In this document: positions 6,633 to 31,260 of the stretch, one piece after another
How the letters are laid out: each line of letters begins with the position of its first letter
Position numbering within the stretch: position 1 is the stretch's first letter
Source of the DNA: a virus
Taxonomy: Duplodnaviria > Heunggongvirae > Uroviricota > Caudoviricetes
Length of the DNA stretch: 34,787 nucleotides
Virus record (IMG/VR): IMGVR_UViG_2630968342_000019
Direction: 5' to 3' (one strand)
The notes under the pieces: generated by a model
Seen by the model: only the letters and a program-made list of their open reading frames with translations
The model's database searches: none
What the model was told of the DNA's origin: nothing
Translations under genes and position numbers: made by a program

Positions 6633-7226
6633 TCAATTATGTAAATCTTTTGTTTTATGTTCTTTGGCGTGTTGTGACAACAAATGGCTATAGCGTTTAA
6701 GCAAAATATTAGAAAGATTAAGCTCATTCATGAAGTGTTCTTCTAATAAGTAACCATCAATATCAACTTTAATATCATTACCACTTTTCATCTTCTGTAA
6801 CGTAGATTTTACACGCTCCAGCAGGATGCTTTGCTCATGGTAATAGTCCATAAGAAGAGTAACATCCTCTTTATCAAGCTTACTTAATTCGCTGAAGTAG
6901 GATTTAAACACTTTATCAGTCTGGTTTAATGCAATCTGTAAGCGAGGCCCCCCTAATGATTTGACATTAATGGCAAAAGGCTCGCCAACAAAATGCTCCG
7001 AATTTTCGTCAAAGCCAATATATCTCGTTTTATCAAGAAAAGTGAGAGCGCGATGGTTATTAGCGATTTCATATGCAAACATTGTTCTGATACTGTCCCT
7101 CTCAGCCTCCATGCTTATATCATCACGATGATTTGTATAAAATATATTTCCAACAAAGAGAACCATAGCAAGAATCACTGAACTTGCCTCCCAGTTAATA
7201 TTTTTTAATCGTCGCTTAGTAAACAT
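6633..7226 (-). CDS. Hypothetical membrane-anchored protein (moron at the P2 Z/fun hotspot)
   Basis: 197-aa ORF in a markedly AT-rich block between tail-fibre assembly gene G and sheath gene FI; N-terminal basic stretch then a hydrophobic helix (EASSVILAMVLFVGNIFYT); AAGGTG Shine-Dalgarno 4 nt before the ATG; own terminator downstream; no motif I can assign. Confidence 0.6.
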   Translation of the reverse strand: MFTKRRLKNINWEASSVILAMVLFVGNIFYTNHRDDISMEAERDSIRTMFAYEIANNHRALTFLDKTRYIGFDENSEHFVGEPFAINVKSLGGPRLQIALNQTDKVFKSYFSELSKLDKEDVTLLMDYYHEQSILLERVKSTLQKMKSGNDIKVDIDGYLLEEHFMNELNLSNILLKRYSHLLSQHAKEHKTKDLHN

Positions 7227-7447: not shown

Positions 7448-7975
7448 TTATTGCGGCATTTCCGGCCATTCAGGATTTGCAGGATCCACACGACTGACCA
7501 GAACGCTGTAGCGTTCCCATGCTTCCAGTCGGCTACGCTCCTCATCTGTTGCCATGTTCAGTCTGACAGCGCGATCCAGCGGCAAAATCACGGATTCAGC
7601 ATCTGCTAGAAGTCTGGCTTTCCGGTTTTCTGCCTGCTGCTGCAATTCCTCTGCCGTATAAATGCGTTTAATCACTTTGCCGTCCTTAAACATCCAGTTC
7701 CCTGAAATGTCCGCCCGTCGGTTAGCAGTAATATCCGCCACTTCAACAACACTTAATCCATCCGGTCTGATAGCTGTCACATCCTTTTCCACATAGCGGA
7801 TGATATTATCTTTGTCGTACGCTATTTTTAGCGTGTCATCAGCAAAATACTTTTGTTCTTCGTACCAGTTCTTACCATCTTCTGAAAAAAACCAGACAAC
7901 ATCAAAGTCTTTTGTCAATTGATATTGTTCAACCGTTTTTGGATTACCTGCCGTTATATTTATCAAATGCTGCAT
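7448..7975 (-). CDS. G: Tail fibre assembly protein (P2 gpG-like)
   Basis: 175-aa ORF, same length as P2 G; immediately downstream of tail-fibre gene H. Confidence 0.88.
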
Positions 7976-7978
7976 AAA

Positions 7979-10108
7979 TTATACCTGCGCCACGTTATAC
8001 CAAGTCCCGTTAATGTATTTCTGCACCGGTCTGTAATATACGCCACCAATGTTATCGGCAGAGTTTGAGCCGGTATCCTGAACAATAATGCCGGAATATA
8101 CACACCCGGATGGTGCCTGATGTGTCCATGTCATGCCATTGTTCGCAGGTTTGTATGTGGCAGCACCACCAAGCCGGATATCCCGGACATAGCGGGAATC
8201 AAAGTTACCGTAATCCGAGGGATTAACACGCCCCGTAATATTTATGGTTTTATTACTTTGAATGCTACCGGAGACAAAGCGCATAACATGGACGTTATTA
8301 GCATAAACATCCAGATTACCGTCGCCATTTTGTTTAAAGCCCGTGTCATTATCACCCAAAACAATCGAGTTACCGCCAAGAGCACTGGATGTTCCGATAC
8401 CCAGTGCACCATTCAATTGACCTCCAGATAATGACAACGCCCCAACATCAGCAGCAGTTGGTTTAATGTGCGAACTGTAAATTATATATACAGTTCCATC
8501 TGTCAGGCCTGTTGGTTTATTCGCTGTATAAGTTGGTGATGTATGAATCGTTACGCTGGCGTTACTGGTATAATCCCACTGAATATTAACACCCGTGGCA
8601 TAATTACCTATTTCAACATAAACATCATAGGTATCACCGGATGTATTCACCCATGCAAAATTAGTAAATCCAACCGATGTCCGTCGCCATAACGCACCAG
8701 TAAGACCTTTTGGATTTCCATTTCCCGCACGAAGAACAAGTTCAGATATACCAGCCTGCATAGGGGAGTTAACATTATATCCAGCACCACCAATCAGACT
8801 TATGTAAACCACGGAACTGGCCTGTGGCATGGTTACAGTTGCCAGCCTGAACCATCCTGTACCACCACTAAAAGACATGGTTGTTGAATTTGTTGCACCA
8901 ATATTGCGCAGGAATAATCTTTTATCAGGAATATCCGCACCGTTCTGATCTTTCTGAAGACGTTTCTCAGCATTGTCATAGGCAGACTTCACCGCTTTTG
9001 GTGTTGCGGCGAGCGTTTCAGACGTGCTGTTAGTCGCACTACTGAGCTGAACAAGGCCTTTTCGCGCCGTGGTGGCATCCTGCGCAGTATATTTCCCGTT
9101 AGCAAGGTCATACGCGACCTTTACCGCCTTTGGTGTTGCCGCAAGCGTTTCTGAATCGCTGTTGGTGGCGCTACTGAGCTGGACAAGACCTTTTCGCGCC
9201 GTGGTGGCATCCTGTGCGGTATATTTCCCGTTAGCGAGGTCATATGCTGCCTTTACCGCCTTTGGCGTTGCCGCAAGCGTTTCAGAATCGCTGTTGGTGG
9301 CGCTACTGAGCTGAGCAAGCCCTTTTCGCGCTGTGGTGGCGTCCTGTGCAGTGTATTTCCCGTTAGCAAGGTCATATGCTGTCTTTACTGCTTTTGGCGT
9401 TGCGGCGAGCGTTTCAGACGTGCTGTTAGTCGCACTACTGAGCTGAACAAGGCCTTTTCGCGCCGTGGTGGCATCCTGCGCAGTATATTTCCCGTTAGCA
9501 AGGTCATATGCGGCCTTTACCGCTTTCGGCGTTGCGGCCAGTGTTTCAGACGTGCTGTTGGTCGCACTGCTTAACTGAGTAAAACCTTTTGCGGTCAGCG
9601 AGGCGTCCGGGTGACGTCGTGACTGTTCGTGCTCTGCAATTTTGTCATCAACGTAATCCTGCGTCGCCATCACCGTTGTGGTGTCAATGGTCAGCGCCAC
9701 TGAGGCCACACTGCTGACGATGATGACCATGCGACAGGTCTGCGAACGCCCTGAGCCTTCGGCAAGAGCTGGCTTATAACTTTCGGCCATGTTCGCCACG
9801 GCAATTAATGTTCCCGCATCATCGTACAGGCCAAGCTCACGCATCCAGAAACCGCCCACCTCCGGCGGAATAACCAGCTCTGCGATAATATAATTACTGT
9901 TTCGTTTGTCCTGACTGATTTTGTTCAGCGCATGTCGCCAGACTTCGTGGATAAGCCCGGTCTGTCCGGCATCCGGGACAGGCAATTTACCACCGCCATC
10001 CCCGACGGCCATCGTGGTAATGTTGACCTTCCGCCCTCCCGGTGCGGTTGCCGCTGCCAGCTTTGCTGCACCGGCAGTGGTGATAACGGTTTTGAATTTT
10101 GTGCTCAT
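7979..10108 (-). CDS. H: Tail fibre protein (P2 gpH-like) with five internal ~44-aa repeats
   Basis: 709-aa ORF; N-terminal ~160 aa recognised as the conserved P2 H baseplate-attachment region; central five-fold repeat LSSATNS(T/D)SETLAATPKAVK.AYDLANGKYTAQDATTARKGL typical of phage tail-fibre repeats; divergent C-terminal receptor-binding part. Confidence 0.9.
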   Translation of the reverse strand: MSTKFKTVITTAGAAKLAAATAPGGRKVNITTMAVGDGGGKLPVPDAGQTGLIHEVWRHALNKISQDKRNSNYIIAELVIPPEVGGFWMRELGLYDDAGTLIAVANMAESYKPALAEGSGRSQTCRMVIIVSSVASVALTIDTTTVMATQDYVDDKIAEHEQSRRHPDASLTAKGFTQLSSATNSTSETLAATPKAVKAAYDLANGKYTAQDATTARKGLVQLSSATNSTSETLAATPKAVKTAYDLANGKYTAQDATTARKGLAQLSSATNSDSETLAATPKAVKAAYDLANGKYTAQDATTARKGLVQLSSATNSDSETLAATPKAVKVAYDLANGKYTAQDATTARKGLVQLSSATNSTSETLAATPKAVKSAYDNAEKRLQKDQNGADIPDKRLFLRNIGATNSTTMSFSGGTGWFRLATVTMPQASSVVYISLIGGAGYNVNSPMQAGISELVLRAGNGNPKGLTGALWRRTSVGFTNFAWVNTSGDTYDVYVEIGNYATGVNIQWDYTSNASVTIHTSPTYTANKPTGLTDGTVYIIYSSHIKPTAADVGALSLSGGQLNGALGIGTSSALGGNSIVLGDNDTGFKQNGDGNLDVYANNVHVMRFVSGSIQSNKTINITGRVNPSDYGNFDSRYVRDIRLGGAATYKPANNGMTWTHQAPSGCVYSGIIVQDTGSNSADNIGGVYYRPVQKYINGTWYNVAQV
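8960..9640 (-). repeat. Tandem ~132-bp coding repeats (about 5 copies) inside tail-fibre gene H
   Basis: Nucleotide motif ttcgcgc(c/t)gtggtggc recurs at 9061, 9193, 9325 and 9457 (period 132 bp); the protein repeat is visible in the H translation. Confidence 0.8.
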
Positions 10109-10118
10109 TATTCCTCAC

Positions 10119-10649
10119 TTATCCGGGGTAAACCGTAATTACATCGCCGTCGTAAGCCACACCACCGGCGAACAGGTAGCCGGGAATGTCCCGGGTAATG
10201 TTCAGGCCAATAAGGTGGCGGCTTGCAGGTTTGGCATCAGCAATCAGCCGTTCCATTTCCTGATACATTGCCTCTGTGATGCCACTTTCCAGTACACCAA
10301 TATCAAGCCGGAAGGTGCCGGGCGGGTCACTGTTTTCCCACCACTCCGTCACGTTGATGAGATAGCCGAGCGGCTCCACCACACGCCGGATTGCACCTAT
10401 AGTGCCTTTATGACAGTGGATGAAATACGCATCGCGGATAACGGCGCGTTTTGTCGCTTCCGGCCACTTTTCATCCCACCTGTCGACCGAAAACGCCCAC
10501 GCCAGCCACGGCAGCAGATTTGCCGGACAGGTGTCCGGGTTCCACAGCTCACGAATACTGACCGGCGTTTTTTCAATTTCCGCACAGGCTTTTGCGGCGG
10601 CGACCTCAAGCGGTGATGAGCCGGTCGGCAGCAGTCGCGAATCACTCAT
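10119..10649 (-). CDS. I: Baseplate assembly protein (P2 gpI-like)
   Basis: 176-aa ORF, same length as P2 I, recognised as gpI. Confidence 0.92.
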   Translation of the reverse strand: MSDSRLLPTGSSPLEVAAAKACAEIEKTPVSIRELWNPDTCPANLLPWLAWAFSVDRWDEKWPEATKRAVIRDAYFIHCHKGTIGAIRRVVEPLGYLINVTEWWENSDPPGTFRLDIGVLESGITEAMYQEMERLIADAKPASRHLIGLNITRDIPGYLFAGGVAYDGDVITVYPG

Positions 10650-11212
10650 CCGAGCCTCCGGTCACGACGCGGTATTCGGTACAGAAAGACGCCTGCGTAC
10701 TGTTGAGCACGATGTCGGCCAGTGGTGCAGCCAGTTCGACACGCTGCACACCTTCCACATGCAAAGCGGCATAAATGGCAGACAGACGGATGTCGCGCCC
10801 CAGCCGGTGCTGTGCCGTGATATACGCTTCCAGTTTTTTCACGGCGGCAGCGCGAATGGGTTCGCTTTCGGGACCAGGGTAAAGGTAAAGCGTGGCGTTT
10901 ATCTGGTATTCAACGATGGCGGCAGACTGCACGGTCACGCGGTCGGCCACCGGCCTGACGTCCTCGCCATTAAGGGCGTTACGCACCACCGCCAGCAGGT
11001 CTTCGGATGCGACACCGTTATTTTCACGTGACAGCACAGAGATGGTGACGCAGGCCGGAGACGGACTGGTTACAGAAATATCCGCGACACGCCCGTCGGC
11101 ACTGCGACCATGATACTGATAGGCCCCCACCGACCCGGCGACGCTTAAACCTTCAAACGCCTGCTGAATACGCAGACGATAATCCGTGTCAGATTCCATC
11201 ACTGCCGGTGTC
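10642..11212 (-). pseudogene. J: Baseplate protein J, C-terminal fragment ('J), separated from its N-terminus by an IS insertion
   Basis: Translation ...TQTPAVMESDTDYRLRIQQAFEGL... is the C-terminal ~190 aa of P2 gpJ. The annotated 201-aa ORF begins inside the IS terminal repeat; genuine J sequence resumes at the target-site duplication. Confidence 0.85.
11207..11212. repeat. Target-site duplication, left copy (GGTGTC)
   Basis: The 6 bp immediately left of the IS terminus TGCGTATT are identical to the 6 bp immediately right of the other terminus (13810..13815). Removing the IS plus one copy restores an open J frame encoding ...STLPPTPAVMESD... Confidence 0.65.
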
Positions 11213-11297
11213 TGCGTATTACCGTGAAGGAGATCGGTGAGTAACATCGATGGAGATCGGTTCGTGTCACTTTCACAGAACCGTTTTTAAATTACCT

Positions 11298-12049
11298 TCA
11301 CTGATCTCCTTCGGTCAACGGAGATTGTATTTTCCGCATTGATTCTCCTTTAAGTTCGATCTTGATACTGCCATGAACCAGTCGATCTAGGATGGCATCC
11401 GCATGTGTGGAGTCTCCGATCATTTTGTACCAGTTTTCCACCGGCAACTGGCTCACTACGATGATTGAGCCTCGTTGGTACATCAGATCCACTATTTCCA
11501 GCAGGTCGCTACGCTGTTCTGATGAGAGAGGTTCCAGCCCCCAGTCATCCAGAAGCAGCAGATCGCTATTATTCAGCCAGGTCAAAAGTTTGCTGTATCT
11601 TCCATCAGCATGCCCCTGATAGCACTGTTCCATCAGCGCTTTAAGGCGATAATAGTAGACCTTGTATCCCTGTCGGCAGGCATTATGACCAAGTGCACAT
11701 GCCAGGAACGTTTTACCGCTGCCGGTGGCCCCGGTCAGTAAAATATTTTGTTTCAGGGTTAACCAGTTTCCCTGACTGAGTGAACGGATGAGGGCCCTGT
11801 CCAGCCCTCTATTGTTACGATAATCCAGCTTTGATAACTCAGCATTAAGTCTGAACCGTGCATGTTTGATCAGACGCTCTGCCTTCCTGTTTTCACGGCA
11901 GGTTAGTTATTCTGCTGTCAGTAATGACAGGCGTTCTTCGAAGCCCCAGCTCCTGGTATGTGCCCGGCTGAGCAAGTTGCTTTTTAAGCGCATCACGGAA
12001 GCCGGTGAGTTTAAGTGCGGTCAGTTGTTCGTAAAGATGATTCATCATT
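11298..12049 (-). pseudogene. istB: istB (IS21-family helper ATPase), apparently disrupted
   Basis: The Walker A region LLTGATGSGKTFLA and the C-terminal 111 aa are IstB-like. Upstream, the frame starting at the ATG (12049; MMNHLYEQLTALKLTGFRDALKKQLAQPGTYQELG...) is out of register with the Walker A frame (apparent +1 base near ctggggcttcgaa), and that frame has an in-frame TAA after ...FEERLSLLTAE. Confidence 0.55.
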
Positions 12050-12059
12050 GGATCCCGTA

Positions 12060-13616
12060 TCAGTGGTAATACTCACTGCCGCGTACGTTTTCGTGTTCCA
12101 TCGTGGATAACAGATCTGGTTTTGGATCCTGAACAGGTTGTTTATCCAGACCTTTTTCCAGGATCGATTTAATACCTGACAGACGCCATACCTTTGTTTT
12201 CAGAGCTCTTGCACATGCTGCATTAAGTCTGGCTTTACTGTATTTTTTATGAAGGTTCAGGAGTCCAAGGCAGAAGCGATAGCTTTGTTCCGGATGTGGA
12301 CGAGAGTTCAGTATATGAAGCACATAACTATGAGTTTCACTGCCTATGTGCCCCGCCCATTCCAGAAGACGCTCTGGCGTCCAGGTGGCATGCTGTCGAT
12401 GAGCTTCAGGCATGTGCGACCCTTCGGGTTCTGTGACCGTACCATAAGTATATGCAAGGTATAAGTCGCTTGCGCGGGGCACAGCAACTCTGCCCCTGAT
12501 TGAAGAGCTTCCATTCTCCGGAGACCATGCTTTTTTCAAGTGGGGCCTAAACGGACCCGGAAACGAGTAGTAATGTTTGTCGATTTCCACGTGGTAATCG
12601 GCATGAACTCTGACTTTCTTCACCAGGGTGTAACTGTAACTGGCTTCAGGAAGAGGCTTCAGTGCGGGTTTATCAAGCTGGATGAAGAGTTCTGCACGTG
12701 AATAACCCAACTTCTGCATTATTTTGTTATTCAGTCTTTCCAGCAACTCCCGAATGCGCTGATTAAGCGATGCAAGGCTGTAGAAGATCTCATGCCTGAT
12801 TCGGGCCATGATCCAGCGTTCAACAACCTGAACGCCAACTTCAGCTTTGGCTTTATCTTTCGGTTTACGTGGCCGCGCAGGCAAAACTGCGACATTATAA
12901 TGCTCAAGCATCTGCTGGTAGGTAGGGTTAACGTCAGGATCATACTTACATGCCCTGGATGTGGCGCTTTTCAGATTGTCCGGAACAACAAGTTCAGGAA
13001 CGCCACCCAACCACTGGAAGCAGCGAACATGACTCATCACCCAGTCTTCAAGCTGCTGAGACCAGGTGGCCTCTGCCCATGTGTAACTTGATGCCCCGAG
13101 AACAGCTACGATGACCTGAGCAGTTCTTATTTCTCCGGTCTCAGGGTCGGTAACGCCAACGGTAGGTCCACAGTAATCAACGAAAAGTTTTTCGCCAGCT
13201 TTATGTACCAGACGCATTGATGGTGAAGTGGTTTTGAGCCATTCACGGTACATCCGGCAGTAATGGTTATAGCTGTAAAAACCGCCTGGATTACGCTCAC
13301 AGTATTCTTCCCAGAGTAGCTGCAGCGTCACGCATTTATTACGCAGTTCCCGGTGTACTGTAGCCCAGTCAGGCAGAGAGTGCTTCTTCATCTTAACCTG
13401 GGTCTGAAGGAACGCATGTTTTAGTTTTGTATCATCCCATCCTGTAGGTAAGGGCCACTGCTTTATGCCAAGTTGAGCCGCCCGATTAGCATATCTGGAT
13501 ACAACGGAAGGGGAGATTGCAAGACTACGACCAATTTGTCGATGGCTGAGTCCAACACCGTATTTAAGCCTAAGAATTTCTTTAAGTTTTCTCATAGAAA
13601 TTGGAACTGTTGGCAT
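12060..13616 (-). CDS. istA: IS21-family transposase IstA
   Basis: 518-aa ORF with an N-terminal helix-turn-helix region, a DDE-type integrase core and the conserved IstA C-terminus (...HYYSFP...WTPERLLEWAGHIG...GIKSILEKGLD...); ATG at 13616. Confidence 0.85.
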   Translation of the reverse strand: MPTVPISMRKLKEILRLKYGVGLSHRQIGRSLAISPSVVSRYANRAAQLGIKQWPLPTGWDDTKLKHAFLQTQVKMKKHSLPDWATVHRELRNKCVTLQLLWEEYCERNPGGFYSYNHYCRMYREWLKTTSPSMRLVHKAGEKLFVDYCGPTVGVTDPETGEIRTAQVIVAVLGASSYTWAEATWSQQLEDWVMSHVRCFQWLGGVPELVVPDNLKSATSRACKYDPDVNPTYQQMLEHYNVAVLPARPRKPKDKAKAEVGVQVVERWIMARIRHEIFYSLASLNQRIRELLERLNNKIMQKLGYSRAELFIQLDKPALKPLPEASYSYTLVKKVRVHADYHVEIDKHYYSFPGPFRPHLKKAWSPENGSSSIRGRVAVPRASDLYLAYTYGTVTEPEGSHMPEAHRQHATWTPERLLEWAGHIGSETHSYVLHILNSRPHPEQSYRFCLGLLNLHKKYSKARLNAACARALKTKVWRLSGIKSILEKGLDKQPVQDPKPDLLSTMEHENVRGSEYYH

Positions 13617-13809
13617 AGGTATCCTTTACCGGAATGGCAAAAGATACAGATCAACACACCTGTGAAGTTCCAATAACATTGATGGAGATCACTGAATAAC
13701 AAAATGAGTCAAAAGTGATCTCCATCGATGTTATTCAGCGATCTGTTCAAATGTTATTACCCGATCTCGATGGAAGTTATTGAGTGATCTCCTTTCATGA
13801 AAATACGCA

Positions 13810-13815
13810 GGTGTC
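13810..13815. repeat. Target-site duplication, right copy (GGTGTC)
   Basis: Identical to 11207..11212 and immediately abutting the IS terminus. Confidence 0.65.
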
Positions 13816-14153
13816 GGCGGGAGGGTCGAATCATCTGCCGGGGTGATAATCAGGCGCGTGGTGTTGTAATTGGCACCAATCACATCAAGGTCATTACCGG
13901 CGGCACAGGCCAGCATTACCGCCCGTGCGGCCTCATTCACACGCTGACGCCAGATAAGCTCACGATAAGCATTTTCCTCCAGCAGTTTGACGAGAGGCTC
14001 GGATTCCAGCGTCAGGGTACGGGCGACCGCCTCCTGCTGGTCTTCCGGGTAAAGGGAAATCAGTGTCGCCTTGCGTTCGGCAAGAATGGTTTCAAAGTCC
14101 AGCTCCTCGACCACATCCGGTGCAGGTAGCTGGTTCAGGTCGATAATCGGCAT
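13810..14153 (-). pseudogene. J: Baseplate protein J, N-terminal fragment (J'), truncated by the IS insertion
   Basis: Translation MPIIDLNQLPAPDVVEELDFETILAERKATLISLYPEDQQEAVARTLTLESEPLVKLLEENAYRELIWRQRVNEAARAVMLACAAGNDLDVIGANYNTTRLIITPADDSTLPPTPA is the gpJ N-terminus; the frame then runs 24 codons into the IS end before a stop at 13731. Confidence 0.85.
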
Positions 14154-14157
14154 GGTT

Positions 14158-14505
14158 TCAACTCACAGGGATGGTTAACGAAAGTGGCTGGCCGGTGTCG
14201 TTGTGCTGGCCGGTCAAAGTGACAGTCATTCGCCCGTCAAAACCGCGCTCAGTGGTGACGGATGACAGGGTGATGCGGGGTTCCCATTTCAGCACCGCCA
14301 TGTAACAGGCGACCTTAATCTGCAACTCAAGCGCCGGGGTCTGCGGCTGGTCAATCATTGACGCCAGCAACGAGCCGTAATCACGACGCATCACCCGTGA
14401 GCCGACCGGTGTGCGCAGGATATCGCCGATACTCTGGCTGATATGCTCAAGGTCAGTGACAGTCAGGCCATCACTGCGATTCATTCCGAGATAACGCGCT
14501 GTCAT
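14158..14505 (-). CDS. W: Baseplate wedge protein (P2 gpW-like, gp25/lysozyme-like fold family)
   Basis: 115-aa ORF, same length as P2 W, recognised as gpW. Confidence 0.92.
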   Translation of the reverse strand: MTARYLGMNRSDGLTVTDLEHISQSIGDILRTPVGSRVMRRDYGSLLASMIDQPQTPALELQIKVACYMAVLKWEPRITLSSVTTERGFDGRMTVTLTGQHNDTGQPLSLTIPVS

Positions 14506-15137
14506 AGAGGACTCCCGGTTGTGCCGCCGCTGTCGCCGGGGTGTTTATGGGTATGCAGTACTTTACCGTTTGATGAGAGTTCACCGCCGGTATGTTCAAT
14601 GTTGCCGCGCATCGTCCCGCCCTTCTGCACTTCCAGCGTGCCGGTAATCAGTTTGTTGGTGCAAACCACCTCCGGTGTGTCCAGGGTGACGCGGGTTGAT
14701 GCTTTCACCATAACCACCGGCACCGTGGCAGTAACAGAATCAGAAGCCGTCACGCTGGCCGTTTTAATTCCGCTTACCGTGAGCGCGCTGGTTTCGGGTT
14801 CATACTCAATCACCGCCCCGTCAGGGAAACGGATATGCAGGGCATCCGCCGACGCAGACGGCGCGGGGTTATCACCGGAATAAATCCCCGGCAGAACGAA
14901 CGCCGTGTCGAGTTCACCGCCCACGGCCAGAATCAGCACCTGTTCACCCACGGAAGGTGCCCACCATGTGCGCGAACGCCCGGCGCGATGGGTCAGCCAC
15001 TGAAGCCAGTCGGTGCACATGCCGCCGGTCTGCACACGGCAGCGACCGGCTTTAAGGTTGGTTTCGACGACAAGACCGGTGCGAATCATGTTGCGCAGTG
15101 CGCGCGCGAGTTCCTGAATATTTGCGAGAGTGTTCAT
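14502..15137 (-). CDS. V: Baseplate central spike protein (P2 gpV-like)
   Basis: 211-aa ORF, same length as P2 V, recognised as gpV; stop overlaps the W start. Confidence 0.92.
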   Translation of the reverse strand: MNTLANIQELARALRNMIRTGLVVETNLKAGRCRVQTGGMCTDWLQWLTHRAGRSRTWWAPSVGEQVLILAVGGELDTAFVLPGIYSGDNPAPSASADALHIRFPDGAVIEYEPETSALTVSGIKTASVTASDSVTATVPVVMVKASTRVTLDTPEVVCTNKLITGTLEVQKGGTMRGNIEHTGGELSSNGKVLHTHKHPGDSGGTTGSPL

Positions 15138-24815: not shown

Positions 24816-26774
24816 ATGTCAGATTTCGAAATTAAAATTGATTTGAATGTGCTAAATCACCTAGGGATGAGTCTCTATTCCAATACTCCCGCGGTACTAA
24901 CTGAGATTATATCAAATGCATGGGATGCAGATGCTCAAAATGTAGAAATTACACTTGATGTTGAGAAAGGAGAGGTCATCATTAAAGATGATGGTCATGG
25001 CATGTCTAAAGATGACATTATTAATAAGTTCCTAAAAGTCGGTTATGCTCGCAGGGAACATGGAAGAGCCAAAAGCGATCATCTAAAACGTCAAGTTATG
25101 GGCAGAAAAGGTATTGGTAAGCTTGCCATGTTTTCACTTGCCAATAAAATCCAAGTTTATTCTTACAAAAAGGGGGAACAGCCTCAGGCCTTTGAGGTAG
25201 ATGTCAAAGATTTACAGCAAAGTATCAAAGAATCAAAAAACTATATTGCTGACTCCCTTGAAATACCCGAAAATCTTGCTTACGGCACTACAATTAAATT
25301 ATTTGAACTAAAAAAAGCCATTGATAGGACTCAAACTTACCTCAGAAAGCGAATAGCTCGTCGATTTAGCATTATTGGCCCCAACCATAACTTTACAGTT
25401 AAAATTAATGGGACCGATATTACACCGGCAGATAGAGATTTCCTTTCAGATCTCGAGTTCATTTGGGAATTTGGCGAATCCGACCCTGAAAGGATAAAAT
25501 CCTGCACAAACATCACACAAAAAAACATATTACCAAATACTATTACCTTTGAAGGAAAAGATGTAAAAGTTAGTGGGTACATTGGCAGTGTAGTTAAGCC
25601 ATCACAGTTAAAGAAAGACCCTGAAATATCTAACAACAGCATTACTGTAATCTCTCACGGACGTGTTTTTGAGGAGGACATATTATTAGAATTTGGAAGT
25701 GCTAAAGTATTCACCAATTATCTGGTCGGTGAAATAGTCGCCGATTTTCTAGATGATAACGAAAAGCCTGATATGGCAACATCTTCTCGTCAAAAACTAC
25801 AACAGAATGATCCAAGATACCCTGTACTTAAAGGTTTTCTGGAAAGAACGCTACAACTAATCGATAAAGATTGGGATAAATGGAGACGCGAAAAAGGAGT
25901 AAATGAAGTTAAAAGCAATACTCCAATAGTAAGTGAATGGCTGAATTCTCTCAAAAAACATGAGAGAGAAAGTGCCGAAAAGTTAATTGGACGAGTAAAC
26001 ACATTCCGTTTTTCTGGTAATGAGGAAGAACAAAAAGCAGCAAGAAAAACCGTATTAAAAAATACGGTATTAGCCTTTGAAAGACTTAGAATTCAAGACA
26101 ACCTTGATGCATTAGATAAAATAAGCAACCTTCAATCAGAAAATTTTAAAGATGTATTTGCATCTGTCAATGACATTGAAGCAAGCATGTTTTATGAAAT
26201 TACTTCGCAACGCCTTAAAGTAATTGAAAAATTCCAAAAAATAACTGATGAAAATCAGCTTGAAAGAGCTGTACAAATGTATTTATATGATCATTTATGG
26301 TTATTGGATCCTTCATGGGAAAGAGTCACAGGCACATCTGTTATGGAGCAAACATTGACCAAGGAACTAAAACAGATAAACCCTGATGCTGCTAGCGGTG
26401 CTCGTATTGATATCGCTTTCAAAACCGTTTCTGGCAAGCATGTAATTATTGAGATGAAACGACCTAAAGTGCACCCAGATATAATGAACCTAGTCGCACA
26501 AGGTAATAAATATGTACAGGCAACGACACAATGGTTCTCCAATAACCCTAAAAATTGCCCAGGTGGAAATATACCGCATATAGAAGTAATATTCCTGGTT
26601 GGCTCTGGATATTTACAAGAGAACCAACACTTTATAAATATGCAATTACTTTCTATCAATGGAAAAATATTGACATATAATGACCTAATCGTGCAATCAA
26701 AACAAGCCTATGCTGAATATCAAGACAAAAAGAATGATGCAGCTAGAATTATGAAAATAGTTGAGGGAATCTAA
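24816..26774 (+). CDS. GHKL-type (Bergerat-fold) ATPase fused to a predicted PD-(D/E)xK-like nuclease domain; cargo at the P2 tin/old position
   Basis: 652-aa ORF with an AAGGA Shine-Dalgarno. N-terminal GHKL motifs read directly: N-box E-IIS-NAWDA, G1 box DDGHGM, G2 box GRKGIG. C-terminal region contains ...GARIDIAF-x11-VIIEMKRPK..., consistent with a D...E-x-K nuclease core. AT-rich composition contrasts with the phage core. Confidence 0.75.
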   Translation: MSDFEIKIDLNVLNHLGMSLYSNTPAVLTEIISNAWDADAQNVEITLDVEKGEVIIKDDGHGMSKDDIINKFLKVGYARREHGRAKSDHLKRQVMGRKGIGKLAMFSLANKIQVYSYKKGEQPQAFEVDVKDLQQSIKESKNYIADSLEIPENLAYGTTIKLFELKKAIDRTQTYLRKRIARRFSIIGPNHNFTVKINGTDITPADRDFLSDLEFIWEFGESDPERIKSCTNITQKNILPNTITFEGKDVKVSGYIGSVVKPSQLKKDPEISNNSITVISHGRVFEEDILLEFGSAKVFTNYLVGEIVADFLDDNEKPDMATSSRQKLQQNDPRYPVLKGFLERTLQLIDKDWDKWRREKGVNEVKSNTPIVSEWLNSLKKHERESAEKLIGRVNTFRFSGNEEEQKAARKTVLKNTVLAFERLRIQDNLDALDKISNLQSENFKDVFASVNDIEASMFYEITSQRLKVIEKFQKITDENQLERAVQMYLYDHLWLLDPSWERVTGTSVMEQTLTKELKQINPDAASGARIDIAFKTVSGKHVIIEMKRPKVHPDIMNLVAQGNKYVQATTQWFSNNPKNCPGGNIPHIEVIFLVGSGYLQENQHFINMQLLSINGKILTYNDLIVQSKQAYAEYQDKKNDAARIMKIVEGI

Positions 26775-26815: not shown

Positions 26816-27865
26816 TTAAATATTCATTTCTGACAAATGTTTTAAAATAGTTTCACCTACGACCTCACCAAGCCTAACAGGAACAGCATTACCTATTAAA
26901 CGCGCAACTGTTCTCATTTCAATTTTTACATCATCAGGCCAAAACTCATACTTTTCTGGGAATGACTGTAATAGCGCAGCCTCTCTTAAACTTAATGCTC
27001 TATTTTGGACAGGGTGCCCAAAGCGTCCATTCCCATATCCAATACATTGAGTTGTAATTGTCGGTCCAAGTTTATCCCAACACATTCTCCCATATACAGC
27101 AGTATATGTAGAACCACTTTCTTTTGTATGACATTTTGCTCTTAGCTCTTCTGGCCAATCACGCCATGTTCCACCAGGTTTTGATGCCATTATTCTTTTT
27201 ATATTAATATCAGATAATGATGCAGAGCGATGTAGTTTATCTCCAGCGTGAACAGCACCGGCACTAATTTCAGGAAGATTACCGATTATATCTCGCACCG
27301 TTTTATAATCATTCTTCTCATGAGTTGGTGGAATTATTTCTATTTCTCCATATTTTGATGCCAATAACACTAATCTTGAACGACTTTGTGCCATTCCATA
27401 GTCTGGACAAAACACCACCCCATACCAAACAAAATAGCCATCATTTTTAAGAGACTTAATGAAGTCCTTAAAAACCTTATGATTCACCACTCGGGGAACG
27501 TTTTCCATTGTAATAATATCTGGCTTTGCAAATTTAATTTGCTTAGCAAAGCTATAAAGCAAAGACCATCTTTTATCTTTTGAACGTACTACCCCTAATT
27601 TAGCACTATTAGTATAGCTTGAAAAAGGTTGGCATGGGGCACAACCAGCCAAAACTCGAACCTTCGCTCCTTCGAAATATTTAACTAATTCGCCGTCCTC
27701 AATGTCTGTAACACTTTTCTGGACAAAGAGTGATTTATTATTTGTCTCATAGGCAAATCGACAGGCTGCATCTATATCATAACCTGCAACTACATTAAGC
27801 CCCGACTTCTGAAGACCGTGAGTCAAGCCACCCGCGCCACAGAATAAATCAACAACCTTAATCAA
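26816..27865 (-). CDS. DNA (cytosine-5)-methyltransferase, Dcm-type
   Basis: C5-MTase motifs read from the translation: motif I DLFCGAGG, motif IV PCQPFS, motif VI ENV (TMENVPRVV), motif VIII QSRSR. Likely start is the TTG at 27865 (M/L-IKVVDLFCGAGG) preceded by AAGGAGG with a 6-nt spacer; the track ORF is extended to an upstream TTG at 27967. Confidence 0.85.
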   Translation of the reverse strand: MIKVVDLFCGAGGLTHGLQKSGLNVVAGYDIDAACRFAYETNNKSLFVQKSVTDIEDGELVKYFEGAKVRVLAGCAPCQPFSSYTNSAKLGVVRSKDKRWSLLYSFAKQIKFAKPDIITMENVPRVVNHKVFKDFIKSLKNDGYFVWYGVVFCPDYGMAQSRSRLVLLASKYGEIEIIPPTHEKNDYKTVRDIIGNLPEISAGAVHAGDKLHRSASLSDINIKRIMASKPGGTWRDWPEELRAKCHTKESGSTYTAVYGRMCWDKLGPTITTQCIGYGNGRFGHPVQNRALSLREAALLQSFPEKYEFWPDDVKIEMRTVARLIGNAVPVRLGEVVGETILKHLSEMNI

Positions 27866-27976: not shown

Positions 27977-30256
27977 TTAGTTTGTTTCAAATCCCGCCCA
28001 ACCATCAGAAATCGGATATGAAAACGTTTTCCCATCATAATTTACGGTCGCGCCACGCGCCAGCGCCTCAAGCTCCCATCGCTGCGGCCTGATACCGTTC
28101 TGAGCAAGGTCAACGCGGATACGGGTAATTTGCATTCTTTCCGACCGGGTCAGTCTGGCCGATGGTGCAATTTCATGTGGTTTTAACGAGCTTCCGTTTC
28201 TTTGCTGACGACTTGGCGTTCTCCGACCGTGTTTTAATGCACCTCTGAGCGCCCTCACGACCTCCGGGTCACTCCATTCGATAACACCGTCATCAACCAG
28301 ATTAAGCACTGCTGCGGCGTGCTCAGAAGGTGTGGGAGCCGGTAACGAAGTATCACCACCGGTGAGTTTTCCACAGTTATTGACAGGACTCCGAGGCGCG
28401 GCGATGCCGCTTTTTAAAGTCAAAGGCTCAACGACCGGCACTTTCGGAACAATGCGCCAGTCCGTCGTTCTGGTGATATGAATATGACGCGCGCCGAGAT
28501 GCGGCGCGTAAATGCCGACCACTCTCTCGACTTCTTCCTCGTACTCGTTAACTTCATCCGACGGACTACGGGCAACCCTGACAGTCTGACAATCGCGCGG
28601 AACATTTGCTCCACCCTGCGCGCTGATATACAACGCAAAATCACCACTGTCTGCGGCAGCGCGTGCAGCCTCGACGCGTTCGTCAAACTCATCAGCAATG
28701 CTGACGCCGCGAGGCAATTTGCGTAGTTCACGGTAAGCCCCCATTGTCGGCAGGCCAACCGTTTTAAATTGCGGAATGCGCCACGTTGACGCCCATGCGG
28801 TAACAGCCGCGGCAGTGTCTTTCAGCGGCCTGCCGGTATCGTTATCGAGCTGACCATCCAGTGCATAGCCATCGATGTTTTTTGAAATGTATTTCGCGAT
28901 ATACCCCGCAGCACCGCCCCGGTTAAGGTGTTTTGCCTGAAAACGGTTTCGCGCAGCTCCTCTTTCGTCGCCATCCTCTTTGAGCGCGTAGCGACGCATG
29001 ATTTCAATAATCTGGTTACGCTGGCGTGGATTACAAAAAAGCATCATATGCCAGTGCGGCGTTCCGTCGTGGTGTGGCTCGACGACTCGCAAACCGTAGA
29101 CCTGTAAATCATTATCCTTGAATGCCGTGCGCATCAGGCTCCAGATACGGCAGAGATAACGCTGCGCATCCTTTGGATTAAATGCCTCATCGTTCCAGCC
29201 GTGATTTAGCTGGACGGTTTTACTTTCTCCTTTTCCGACCTGACGTGTCGGGTGATACTTTGACGGCGCGGTCAGCGTGATAAACATCCCCACATCACCC
29301 TCTGCTGCGGCGTAACGCTCAATACCGGCGATGGTGTTCATCAGCTCCATCCGGCGAATTTCTGGATTAGAAATACTGCCCATCACCTTACTGATAAGGT
29401 CGATGCGCTCGCCGGTTTCCTTGTTTTCAAGGTCACACGATTTAAGAAACTCCAGATTTGCCTGGCGGCGCGCACGCACATCACGAATGGCATGTTTACT
29501 GGCATAAGGAGAACGGTCTTTATTGACCTCCCCGACAGCAATCAGTAACGCCTCATGCCAGCGCATACGCTGGCCTTTAAGCTGATGAGTCCACCACTCA
29601 TCGTTAAACAGACGGGCAATGGCAGAATATGCCTGCCTCGTGGTTATCTGTCCTTTACGGTATTTTTTCCAGTAGAGCGGGGAAATATTGAAAGCACGTG
29701 CAGCGCCAGCAACATGACCATACAGGTGAGTCTGCGCCTCATCCGTAAACAGCGATTCTTTTTCGCCATGTGCATCAACCCATGCATCGCAGAGTTCCTC
29801 ATACATCATGAAAAGCTGCGATGAGATACGGGCGGCAAACTTTTTCAGCTCCTTGTCATTCATTCCAGGCAGGCGCGCATAGTGGTCACGCTCTGCCAGA
29901 AACAGCAACGACGCGTCGGTGTTCATTTCATGGCGCTGATTCACGCGCTCAATGCGCGGCCATAAACGACGCTGAAAAGTGGATGTGAGGAAATAAAACC
30001 CGTGCACCGGGCTTTTATTGCGCCGGATGTAGTCATAGCGTGAAGTAAACAGCGAGCGCAAAAAGTAAGGCAGGCGGTTAATCGTGGATAAAACACCTTG
30101 CACCTGACGCATCTCGTCACGTGTAAGGGGTCTTTCGCGCCCGACGGCCTCGCGTGGCGCGTTCCATGCATAAGCACCGGTAAACGCCTTACCGGTGCCT
30201 GCAGCAAATGCTGACGGAGGTACGCAGGTGTATTGCTCCTGGAAAGAATGACTCAT
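27977..30256 (-). CDS. A: Replication initiation protein (P2 gpA-like rolling-circle endonuclease)
   Basis: 759-aa ORF (P2 A is about 761 aa) recognised as gpA; last gene of the early operon on this strand. Confidence 0.92.
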   Translation of the reverse strand: MSHSFQEQYTCVPPSAFAAGTGKAFTGAYAWNAPREAVGRERPLTRDEMRQVQGVLSTINRLPYFLRSLFTSRYDYIRRNKSPVHGFYFLTSTFQRRLWPRIERVNQRHEMNTDASLLFLAERDHYARLPGMNDKELKKFAARISSQLFMMYEELCDAWVDAHGEKESLFTDEAQTHLYGHVAGAARAFNISPLYWKKYRKGQITTRQAYSAIARLFNDEWWTHQLKGQRMRWHEALLIAVGEVNKDRSPYASKHAIRDVRARRQANLEFLKSCDLENKETGERIDLISKVMGSISNPEIRRMELMNTIAGIERYAAAEGDVGMFITLTAPSKYHPTRQVGKGESKTVQLNHGWNDEAFNPKDAQRYLCRIWSLMRTAFKDNDLQVYGLRVVEPHHDGTPHWHMMLFCNPRQRNQIIEIMRRYALKEDGDERGAARNRFQAKHLNRGGAAGYIAKYISKNIDGYALDGQLDNDTGRPLKDTAAAVTAWASTWRIPQFKTVGLPTMGAYRELRKLPRGVSIADEFDERVEAARAAADSGDFALYISAQGGANVPRDCQTVRVARSPSDEVNEYEEEVERVVGIYAPHLGARHIHITRTTDWRIVPKVPVVEPLTLKSGIAAPRSPVNNCGKLTGGDTSLPAPTPSEHAAAVLNLVDDGVIEWSDPEVVRALRGALKHGRRTPSRQQRNGSSLKPHEIAPSARLTRSERMQITRIRVDLAQNGIRPQRWELEALARGATVNYDGKTFSYPISDGWAGFETN

Positions 30257-31260
30257 TCACATACACCGGCATAGACACTACTGCAAACTGACTTATCATT
30301 CACCGAAGCCAGCAAATCAAACTGTGCCCCGCCACGCGTGGTCATCGCCCAGTCACGATAAGACTCAATTCCGTAAGCATCGACAGTAATAATATCAATG
30401 CGGCGTTCCGCACGACGCGGGTCATGAGTTGACGGGAAGAAAGTAGAATTTCCGCGTCTGGAGCATGCGGCGACAAGTCGCTCCCATTCCGCAACACGCT
30501 TAACCTCTTCCGGCCAGCGACTAAAAATTTCAGCTAATTCAGACTTTCTGGCGTGGATGCAGGGCATACAACCGACACGACTGCATCCCTGCTGGTATAA
30601 CGGATTAGGTTTAATTCCATGACGTCTTGCAAATGCAAATACCTCCTCATGCGTCCAGTTCAGAATAGGACGGTATACATGGAGCCCGGGCGTATTGTCC
30701 GCATCCTCTTCCCAGGCAGGCAGACCCGCGCGCGCAGGAGACTCCTGAGCGCGAACCCCCTGCCAGCTAATTACCTCATCAAACTCATTAAGCGCAGGTA
30801 ACACGACCTGAGTACGTACTGGCTCATGTTTAAGGTCAAAAGTGCAAAATCTGGCTTTAGTGGAAGGAAATCGCCCTTTCCACATGCACAAATCAAGAAA
30901 TGGGATACCAGTAGGCTTGAGAATTTCCAGCGCACAATTGATGCGCTCTGCCGCTTCCCCCGGAGACATTCCGCACTCTTCAACCAGAGAAACAGGCCAT
31001 TTCTCAGCAATAAACTTGCGCTTACCTTCAATCTGTCGGGAGAAGTCAGCTTTAACCCGTTTAACCGGCCCGAGTCGGTTCTCCAGATAATCGAGATACT
31101 CCATTGTCTGCGGATGCTCATGCCCGGTGTCTGCAAAAACCGGCAAAAAATGCACACCGCTTTCAATACCAACAAGCCATTGAGCAAGGCTATCCTTTCC
31201 GCCAGAAACAGAAATAATATTGATAGAGCTTTCAGCTCGGCAGCGGGTATCAACTATCAT
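30253..31260 (-). CDS. PAPS reductase family (PP-loop ATP pyrophosphatase) protein, DndC/CysH-like
   Basis: 335-aa ORF with PP-loop SGGKDS near the N-terminus, DTGHEHPQT motif and a C-terminal cysteine cluster (CSRVGCMPC); stop overlaps the A start, so it is translationally coupled in the early operon. Not part of the P2 reference gene set as I recall it. Confidence 0.8.
   Translation of the reverse strand: MIVDTRCRAESSINIISVSGGKDSLAQWLVGIESGVHFLPVFADTGHEHPQTMEYLDYLENRLGPVKRVKADFSRQIEGKRKFIAEKWPVSLVEECGMSPGEAAERINCALEILKPTGIPFLDLCMWKGRFPSTKARFCTFDLKHEPVRTQVVLPALNEFDEVISWQGVRAQESPARAGLPAWEEDADNTPGLHVYRPILNWTHEEVFAFARRHGIKPNPLYQQGCSRVGCMPCIHARKSELAEIFSRWPEEVKRVAEWERLVAACSRRGNSTFFPSTHDPRRAERRIDIITVDAYGIESYRDWAMTTRGGAQFDLLASVNDKSVCSSVYAGVCE

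Follow-up and report, generated by a model that had tools for sequence, protein, structure and literature searches.

ISEc12 insertion in the baseplate gene J of a Wphi-type prophage of the E. coli G6/7-G8 clone

A P2-like prophage of E. coli G6/7 carries an insertion sequence within J, the gene for a baseplate wedge subunit. This locus raises the question of whether the split gene records a genuine transposition, whether the prophage can still form infectious particles, and whether loss of J reflects domestication by the host. The window, which is the whole 34.8-kb stretch of DNA that was analyzed, is JPMZ01000054.1 from the 2015 draft of E. coli G6/7. The prophage is a Wphi-type Peduovirus located between fieF and cpxP in the chromosome of the G6/7-G8 clone. 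G6/7 and G8 were regarded in the genome paper as probably one clone, and finished genomes are available for both (CP060061 for G6/7 and CP060057 for G8). Symbioflor 2, a probiotic, contains this clone.

The prophage has the late gene order Q P / O N M L X Y K R S / V W J I H G / FI FII E T U D, and the early region int C cox B A is also present; the P2 order was recovered both by tblastn with Wphi and in the annotation that PGAP gives for the identical G6/7 sequence. Gene-by-gene tblastn found the other Wphi genes from Q to A, as well as int, C and cox, at full length or nearly so with 71-100% identity. The exception is H, in which tblastn revealed that the C-terminal part has been swapped for sequence divergent from that of Wphi. 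PGAP flagged no pseudogene besides J in the identical G6/7 sequence. Judged against phage Wphi, J is the only visible lesion among the core genes. A second J-I region is absent from both G6/7 and G8, each record containing the region in one place at megablast sensitivity. The cargo genes, a Type II restriction-modification system and a PAPS-reductase-like gene, are intact.

The interrupting element, which a preliminary description of the window had placed at 11213..13809 and assigned to the IS21 family, is ISEc12 (Table 1). More than 1,300 E. coli genomes carry annotated ISEc12 copies to which it is 98.0% identical from end to end; the reference for comparison was a RefSeq copy so named by PGAP, in place of the ISfinder entry. 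Outside of 12418-12563, 4 positions differ from this reference copy (~99.9% identity). The gene layout is that of IS21 elements, with istA (DDE, rve core) followed by istB (IstB_IS21 AAA+ ATPase), and both genes are transcribed on the minus strand in the direction of J. The TG...CA ends, imperfect inverted repeats and subterminal motifs of the original account are all present. The element begins with TGCGTATT and finishes with AATACGCA, the same ends as those of an independent ISEc12 copy within allS (L001). Both ends share the same terminal 8 nt, TGCGTATT, beyond which the inverted repeat is imperfect. Subterminal repeats with a 23-bp period, three direct and one inverted, lie near 13673-13790, and two direct repeats and one inverted repeat lie near 11218-11312; repeat families D1 and D2 and inverted repeats I1-I8 were detected. 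All six GGAGATC heptamers of the window fall in the two IS ends. From the known architecture of the IS21 family, the subterminal repeats are presumed to be putative IstA binding sites.

Table 1. Features of the interrupted J locus (positions refer to the window).
Feature	Position	Strand	Details
J N-terminal fragment	13810..14153	-	Codons 1 to ~114, including the right duplication copy
Target-site duplication, right copy GGTGTC	13810..13815	.	Read directly; single copy in the E275a empty site
istA-proximal IS end	13673..13809	-	TGCGTATT read inward plus 23-bp-spaced repeats with GGAGATC-like cores, one copy inverted
istA transposase gene	12060..13616	-	518 aa here vs 513 aa canonical
Garbled istA patch	12418..12563	.	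145 bp, ~50 codons; dense substitutions and 1-3-nt indels
istB helper ATPase gene	11298..12045	-	Broken here: extra C at 11944, Glu-to-stop at 11909
istB-proximal IS end	11213..11312	-	TGCGTATT plus two direct GGAGATC-containing repeats and a further, inverted one
ISEc12 (IS21 family)	11213..13809	-	2597 bp here vs 2581 bp canonical; 98.0% identity over 100% length
Target-site duplication, left copy GGTGTC	11207..11212	.	Read directly; single copy in the E275a empty site
J C-terminal fragment	10642..11212	-	Residues ~115-302 plus stop

Elements of the IS21 family generate target-site duplications of 4-8 bp. The duplication reported for this insertion, GGTGTC, is 6 bp long, and the uninterrupted J genes in the prophages of E. 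coli E275a (CP035865) and MMC-J-0020 (CM128549) each contain one GGTGTC at the insertion point. Clean duplication of 6 bp that occur once in the empty site is the signature of a real transposition. It had also been proposed that removal of the element and one repeat copy restores an open J frame. Indeed, when 10642..11212 is joined to 13816..14153, an open frame of 909 nt results that encodes 302 aa, including ...STLPPTPAVMESD..., and is identical to E275a J at 908 of 909 nt, the one nucleotide change resulting in one amino acid change. At the protein level, restored J is 99% identical to its counterparts in Wphi, L-413C and P2, all of them viable phages. In tblastn alignments with intact Wphi gpJ, residues 1-116 match 14153..13806 at 99% and residues 114-302 match 11211..10645 at 100%. 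J is not naturally two genes in this lineage. Related prophages and viable peduoviruses have it as one gene, and J (about 302 aa) is contiguous in 506 phage records at a coverage of at least 80%, including Wphi, L-413C and P2.

The insertion breaks gpJ after approximately residue 114, which corresponds to the boundary between the N-terminal domain and the middle and C-terminal domains. The N-terminal frame continues into the IS end to 13731, resulting in a 140-aa product that bears Pfam Baseplate_J_N in the public record, and PGAP labels this piece in G6/7 and G8 as incomplete with a missing C-terminus. The C-terminal fragment matches Pfam Baseplate_J with 84.7 bits and bears Baseplate_J_M and Baseplate_J_C in the public record. 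Among 5,426 complete E. coli genomes, the J::ISEc12 junction is found in G6/7 and G8 only. The junctions in these two finished genomes are identical to those of the window, and J is marked as a pseudogene in both. The insertion reads as a single recent event confined to one clone.

Both istA and istB are present, as originally described, but damage to both genes in the draft record had been overlooked: istB is broken and istA is garbled. IstA encoded by the window matches Pfam rve at residues 139-252 with 40.8 bits, above the cut-off, and is identical to the reference except in the garbled patch and at one residue, where an ambiguous base causes a substitution. The patch holds an insertion of ~16-21 nt, with two alignments differing in gap placement, and has a net length change of +15 nt, in frame, with zero stops in ~50 garbled codons. 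It ruins the second half of Mu-transpos_C_2, lowering the Pfam score from 59.6 to 24.4 bits. The istB lesions were located by three-frame translation against reference IstB, which matches Pfam IstB_IS21 with 227 bits; the istB region of the window translates to the reference protein, with a single frameshift and a single stop as the only departures. The public draft contig lists both the gene for the 518-aa IstA and a 111-aa istB remnant. In finished G6/7 and G8, PGAP annotates istB at the J locus as intact. In finished G6/7, istA is frameshifted by a separate 2-bp deletion, whereas G8 lacks this deletion and has intact copies of both istA and istB.

The istB frameshift and stop, the istA patch and two odd bases are probably sequencing artefacts from gap closure in the 2015 draft. 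All 66 differences between the window and finished G6/7 lie inside the IS, and none are found in the other 32.2 kb. Finished G6/7 and G8 are canonical at every patch and istB-lesion position, and two of the 66 differing bases, given as A in the window, are N in the public record. According to the genome paper, gaps in the drafts were bridged by PCR, and the products were sequenced from primers at their termini. On this reading, the IS-sized gap was filled from a PCR product that was read inward from its ends. The centre of the istA patch is 20 nt from the IS midpoint, and the patch is 1.2-1.4 kb from each junction, where end-primed reads run out. The patch was not found in complete E. coli genomes, in plasmids (distant mode) or in GTDB species representatives (exact 33-mer), and the istB variants were not found in other ISEc12 copies, the best match still differing at 2-3 of 406 nt. 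Two other origins of the patch were considered and rejected. An inversion of the canonical sequence is contradicted by alignment scores of 124 for the forward orientation and -106 for the reverse complement; gene conversion from an IS21 relative would have to draw on a donor, and no match appeared in the genome, plasmid and GTDB searches, while at the protein level the patch is frame-scrambled, unlike a diverged homologue. Alternatively, the IS copy may be truly decayed, with real mutations, in which case the insertion would be immobile and locked in place. The window itself reads as damaged, the patch preserves the istA frame without a stop, and istA of finished G6/7 is frameshifted too. However, given the canonical bases in both finished genomes, the confinement of every difference to the IS, the ambiguous bases behind two apparent SNPs, the location of the patch at the limit of end-primed reads, and the failure to find another ISEc12 copy with the patch or the istB variants in three collections, true decay is quite unlikely. 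Misassembly of a repeat copy could in principle have placed the IS in J, as the draft behind the window was built from short reads, its gaps being closed by PCR, and ISEc12 ends occur at approximately six places in the G6/7-G8 chromosome. Yet two later complete assemblies match the junctions to the base, and the clean 6-bp duplication is of a sequence that is single in the empty site, leaving this explanation next to no probability.

What the insertion means for the prophage depends on the function of J. gpJ is a gp6-like protein of the baseplate wedge, homologous to T4 gp6, and the wedge is a heterotrimer of two gpJ and one gpI. Because gpJ forms the baseplate wedges, failure of tail assembly is expected. 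It is proposed that ISEc12, by means of the IstA DDE transposase and the IstB AAA+ helper, transposed into J, where a 6-bp staggered cut at GGTGTC would have duplicated the target. Splitting J at the domain boundary would leave no full-length gpJ, without which the prophage should fail to build functional tails or to release infectious particles, while it would retain its immunity, integration, replication, lysis, head and cargo genes. A tail-assembly defect and loss of infectivity are thus likely consequences of the loss of full-length gpJ. No minus-strand terminator-like site that would bear on polarity over I, H and G was predicted within the IS. The literature on phages and prophages of the Symbioflor 2 E. 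coli yielded nothing relevant, with no induction or plaque data found. P2-type prophages are very stable and not SOS-inducible; therefore, mitomycin C would be a poor test of this prophage. It could be argued that both J fragments are made and form a working wedge, or that the IS excises precisely, so that the prophage is viable. The split falls between Baseplate_J_N and Baseplate_J_M/C, a 201-aa ORF covering the C-terminal fragment starts at an ATG at 11247 within the IS end, and the 6-bp direct repeats could allow rare precise excision. Nevertheless, no Shine-Dalgarno sequence was seen before this ATG on reading the sequence, 26 and 11 foreign residues are attached to the fragments where they are broken, J is contiguous in every viable relative, and repeats of 6 bp normally support precise excision very rarely. 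A viable prophage is therefore very unlikely. The preliminary description also saw a pattern of domestication, with the prophage keeping its cargo genes while probably unable to make infectious particles. On such a reading, knockout of J would have been selected because the host keeps the immunity and defence cargo without the risk of lytic loss. The restriction-modification and PAPS-reductase-like cargo is intact, J is the sole lesion, and the insertion has been kept in both G6/7 and G8. Against this, there is one event in one clone (two of 5,426 genomes), with no parallel insertion and no further gene decay, and these data give no indication of selection or long-term retention. The prophage data likewise contain no sign of selection for keeping the cargo genes. 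The benefit would also be small, since P2-type prophages are already stable and non-inducible, and the tail-gene lesions of sister prophages look haphazard, with IS2 in the tail-fibre assembly gene G of E275a and a fragmented H in MMC-J-0020. Domestication is therefore unlikely and was not borne out as a description of the locus. It is highly improbable that J::ISEc12 is a selected or reversible off-switch that keeps immunity and restriction-modification without phage shedding, or that gpJ functions in two pieces. The explanation as a whole, in which ISEc12 recently inserted into a Wphi-type J, the damage inside the element is artefactual, and functional tails were presumably lost, is very probably correct.

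The insertion is real but ordinary, and it is already annotated in the public G6/7 and G8 records. IS knockouts of prophage structural genes are commonplace, and the present case involves a known IS in one clone. The results do suggest that in G6/7 and G8 the P2-like prophage is unable to spread as a phage, which bears on probiotic safety dossiers, and the J::ISEc12 junction provides a specific marker of the G6/7-G8 clone. Caution is warranted in reading the window, as the apparent decay of the IS is probably an artefact of the draft assembly and not biology.

Phage Wphi (AY135739) has the same gene order from Q to A as the prophage in the window. The products of int, C and cox are 99-100% identical to those of Wphi, and for most structural proteins the identity is 93-100%. 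J is contiguous in Wphi and 99-100% identical over both fragments in the window. The window differs from Wphi in the C-terminal part of H and in G (74%). The cargo also differs: a 197-aa ORF is found in place of orf44, an REase/Dcm pair is found in place of orf91-98, and a PAPS-reductase-family gene precedes A. In the prophages of E275a and MMC-J-0020, I and the C-terminal part of J are 100% identical to the window, and J is without the IS.

Finally, the insertion can be compared with other ISEc12 insertions. The same element, with the same ends and istA-istB layout, is found in tssM of E. coli ST131 clade C/H30, where it is flanked by a 5-bp duplication, ACTGC (PMC10711316). The duplication of the allS copy is also 5 bp (CCAGC). 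With two cases of 5 bp and one of 6 bp, the length of the ISEc12 duplication varies between 5 and 6 bp. Like the insertion in J, the tssM insertion is clone-specific and splits a structural gene of a contractile-tail-like machine (PMC10711316). The two cases differ in the target, which is a baseplate gene of a prophage in the G6/7-G8 clone and a gene for the membrane complex of the T6SS in ST131 (tssM, PMC10711316).

Gene J, which encodes a baseplate component of this P2-like prophage, is interrupted by an ordinary insertion of ISEc12 that is already annotated in finished genomes. The preliminary description, an IS21-family element inserted in J, is confirmed and its core interpretation was right. 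The element contains a 518-aa ORF bearing an rve integrase core, and after this come the remnants of a gene for an IstB-type ATPase. By megablast, 1,366 of the 5,426 complete E. coli genomes, as well as 609 plasmids, have full-length matches to it at 98.0%, and PGAP consistently names the matched copies "IS21-like element ISEc12 family transposase" and "helper ATPase IstB". Repeats spaced by 23 bp are present at both ends: the istA end has three direct copies and one inverted copy, the istB end two direct copies and one inverted copy. GGAGATC occurs six times in the 34.8-kb window, each time inside one of the two IS ends. End repeats of this layout are typical of IS21-family elements, whose ends carry multiple transposase binding sites.

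Coordinates of the features discussed (window positions)
Feature	Coordinates	Strand	Remarks
P2-type baseplate genes V, W, J, I	10119..15137	-	
J, N-terminal part	14153..13810	-	~114 codons
J, remainder	11212..10642	-	
IS element	11213..13809	same orientation as J operon	2597 bp; starts TGCGTATT, ends AATACGCA
Tail fibre gene H	7979-10108		709 aa; repeats about 8969-9593
BbrUII/HgiDII-family Type II restriction enzyme	24816-26774	+	652 aa; GHKL (HATPase_c_3) domain
C5-cytosine methyltransferase	26816-27865	-	349 aa
PAPS-reductase-family gene	30253-31260	-	335 aa; between orf83 and A
ORF at P2 Z/fun cargo position	6633-7226	-	197 aa; between G and FI

Sister prophages with an empty insertion site, in E. 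coli E275a and MMC-J-0020, are 100% identical to the window across gene I and the J C-terminus, and in both J is an uninterrupted 909 nt. E275a has a single GGTGTC at the insertion point (...CACTGCCGGTGTCGGCGGG...), whereas a copy stands on either side of the element in the window. Removal of 11213..13815 restores an open J frame, as had been proposed; this frame is 909 nt long and differs from E275a J by 1 nt. Independent copies define the canonical ends of the IS, which makes the 6-bp length of the duplication unambiguous. The canonical ISEc12 copy in allS (2581 bp) shares the termini of the window copy and has a 5-bp duplication, and the copy in tssM of ST131 has a 5-bp duplication as well (PMC10711316). 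The alternative that J is naturally two genes is excluded, since alignment to intact P2-like J reveals a single gene of 302 aa, with 99% identity, in viable phages (Wphi, L-413C, P2, fiAA91-ss and others).

The insertion is restricted to one clone. A 90-bp left-junction probe fully matched only G6/7 (CP060061) and G8 (CP060057), both Symbioflor 2 strains, among 5,426 genomes, and PGAP annotates the J pieces in both as pseudogene fragments flanking ISEc12. The entire window, from gene D to integrase, aligns with G6/7 5069154..5103922, between fieF and cpxP. The 140-aa ORF at the J N-terminus has an exact-product match in JPMZ01000054.1 (GCA_000768465.1), 6.4 kb of which is identical to the window save two N positions; the genome announcement identifies JPMZ as the G6/7 draft of 2015.

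Compared with canonical ISEc12, the element in the window seems damaged. An extra C at 11944 causes an istB frameshift, C>A at 11909 converts an istB Glu codon to a stop, and single-base changes occur at 11579 and 13210, where the window has A and the public record N. A 145-bp patch in istA (12418..12563) contains dense substitutions, 1-3-nt indels and an insertion of ~16-21 nt. It scrambles ~50 codons, and with the second half of the Mu-transpos_C_2 domain lost, the domain score falls from 59.6 to 24.4 bits, under the cut-off. This damage could be read as decay of the IS. However, the 66 differences that separate the window from finished G6/7 are all within the IS, with none in the remaining 32.2 kb, and the finished G6/7 and G8 copies are canonical at every damaged position, differing from the reference copy by only three substitutions plus a 2-bp istA deletion in G6/7. 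The patch and the istB variants were absent from every other ISEc12 copy searched. The chromosome has ISEc12 ends at about six places, and an IS with that many sites would leave an IS-sized assembly gap. Gaps in the draft were closed by sequencing PCR products with terminal primers; the tails of two such end-primed reads would meet mid-IS. The patch centre is 20 nt off the exact IS midpoint, 1.2-1.4 kb from each junction. The istB frameshift, istB stop and istA patch are very probably gap-closure read errors rather than biology, and given this evidence of sequencing error the IS is treated here as canonical ISEc12. The copy at J is intact in G8. The 2-bp (AG) deletion in finished G6/7 (7509-7510 of that locus, window 12625-12626), absent from the draft window and from G8, may be either a genuine mutation or an error in the long-read consensus. 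Beyond what was already annotated, the sole additions are where the window comes from and the reading of the internal "decay" as a very probable draft-sequencing artefact.

In the baseplate, gpJ is a subunit of the six wedges, which are heterotrimers with two gpJ and one gpI apiece, and it is the gp6-like component of the minimal contractile-tail baseplate. The break in J falls between the Baseplate_J_N and Baseplate_J_M/C domains, and the only start available to the C-terminal piece is an IS-borne ATG lacking a Shine-Dalgarno sequence. As to polarity on I, H and G, the IS runs in the direction of the operon, and no minus-strand terminator-like site was predicted in it. At the sensitivity of megablast, G6/7 and G8 have no further J-I region. 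Judged from the sequence, tail assembly, and hence infectivity, has most likely been lost; experimental data on phage release from G6/7 or G8 were not found in the literature.

The suggestion of a domestication pattern is not supported, as the event is limited to one clone, the remaining prophage is pristine and parallel events are absent. By gene-by-gene tblastn against Wphi, Q, P, O, N, M, L, X, Y, K, lysA/B/C, R, S, V, W, I, G, FI, FII, E, T, U, D, int, C, cox, B, orf78-83 and A are full length or nearly so (71-100% identity), and J is the sole gene in two pieces. PGAP flagged no further pseudogenes in the identical G6/7 sequence. E275a, with J intact, carries IS2 in the tail-fibre assembly gene G (NZ_CP035865 locus, 1013-2876), indicating that tail genes in this prophage lineage are hit by IS elements repeatedly, at different sites; in MMC-J-0020 the tail fibre gene H is fragmented. 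These lesions of the sister prophages are haphazard. The pattern looks like sporadic IS traffic and is no evidence of selection.

Differences from Wphi are found in the tail fibre and cargo genes. H matches Wphi H well over its first 251 residues only, because the C-terminal, receptor-binding part is a different sequence. H also contains five tandem ~44-aa repeats (...YDLANGKYTAQDATTARKGLVQLSSATNS.SETLAATPKAVK...), with ~87% self-matches at a 132-nt offset. The restriction enzyme and methyltransferase genes are convergent and occupy the P2 tin/old position between portal gene Q and replication gene A, where Wphi has mth, orf96 and orf98. The PAPS-reductase-family gene, which partially matches the PADLOC models SspD, BrxP and DndC, has no counterpart at this position in Wphi. 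The 197-aa ORF has no match in Pfam or PADLOC; its slot is occupied by orf44 in Wphi and, in both E275a and MMC-J-0020, by a HEPN-domain protein, and these differing contents mark the Z/fun position as a variable cargo hotspot.
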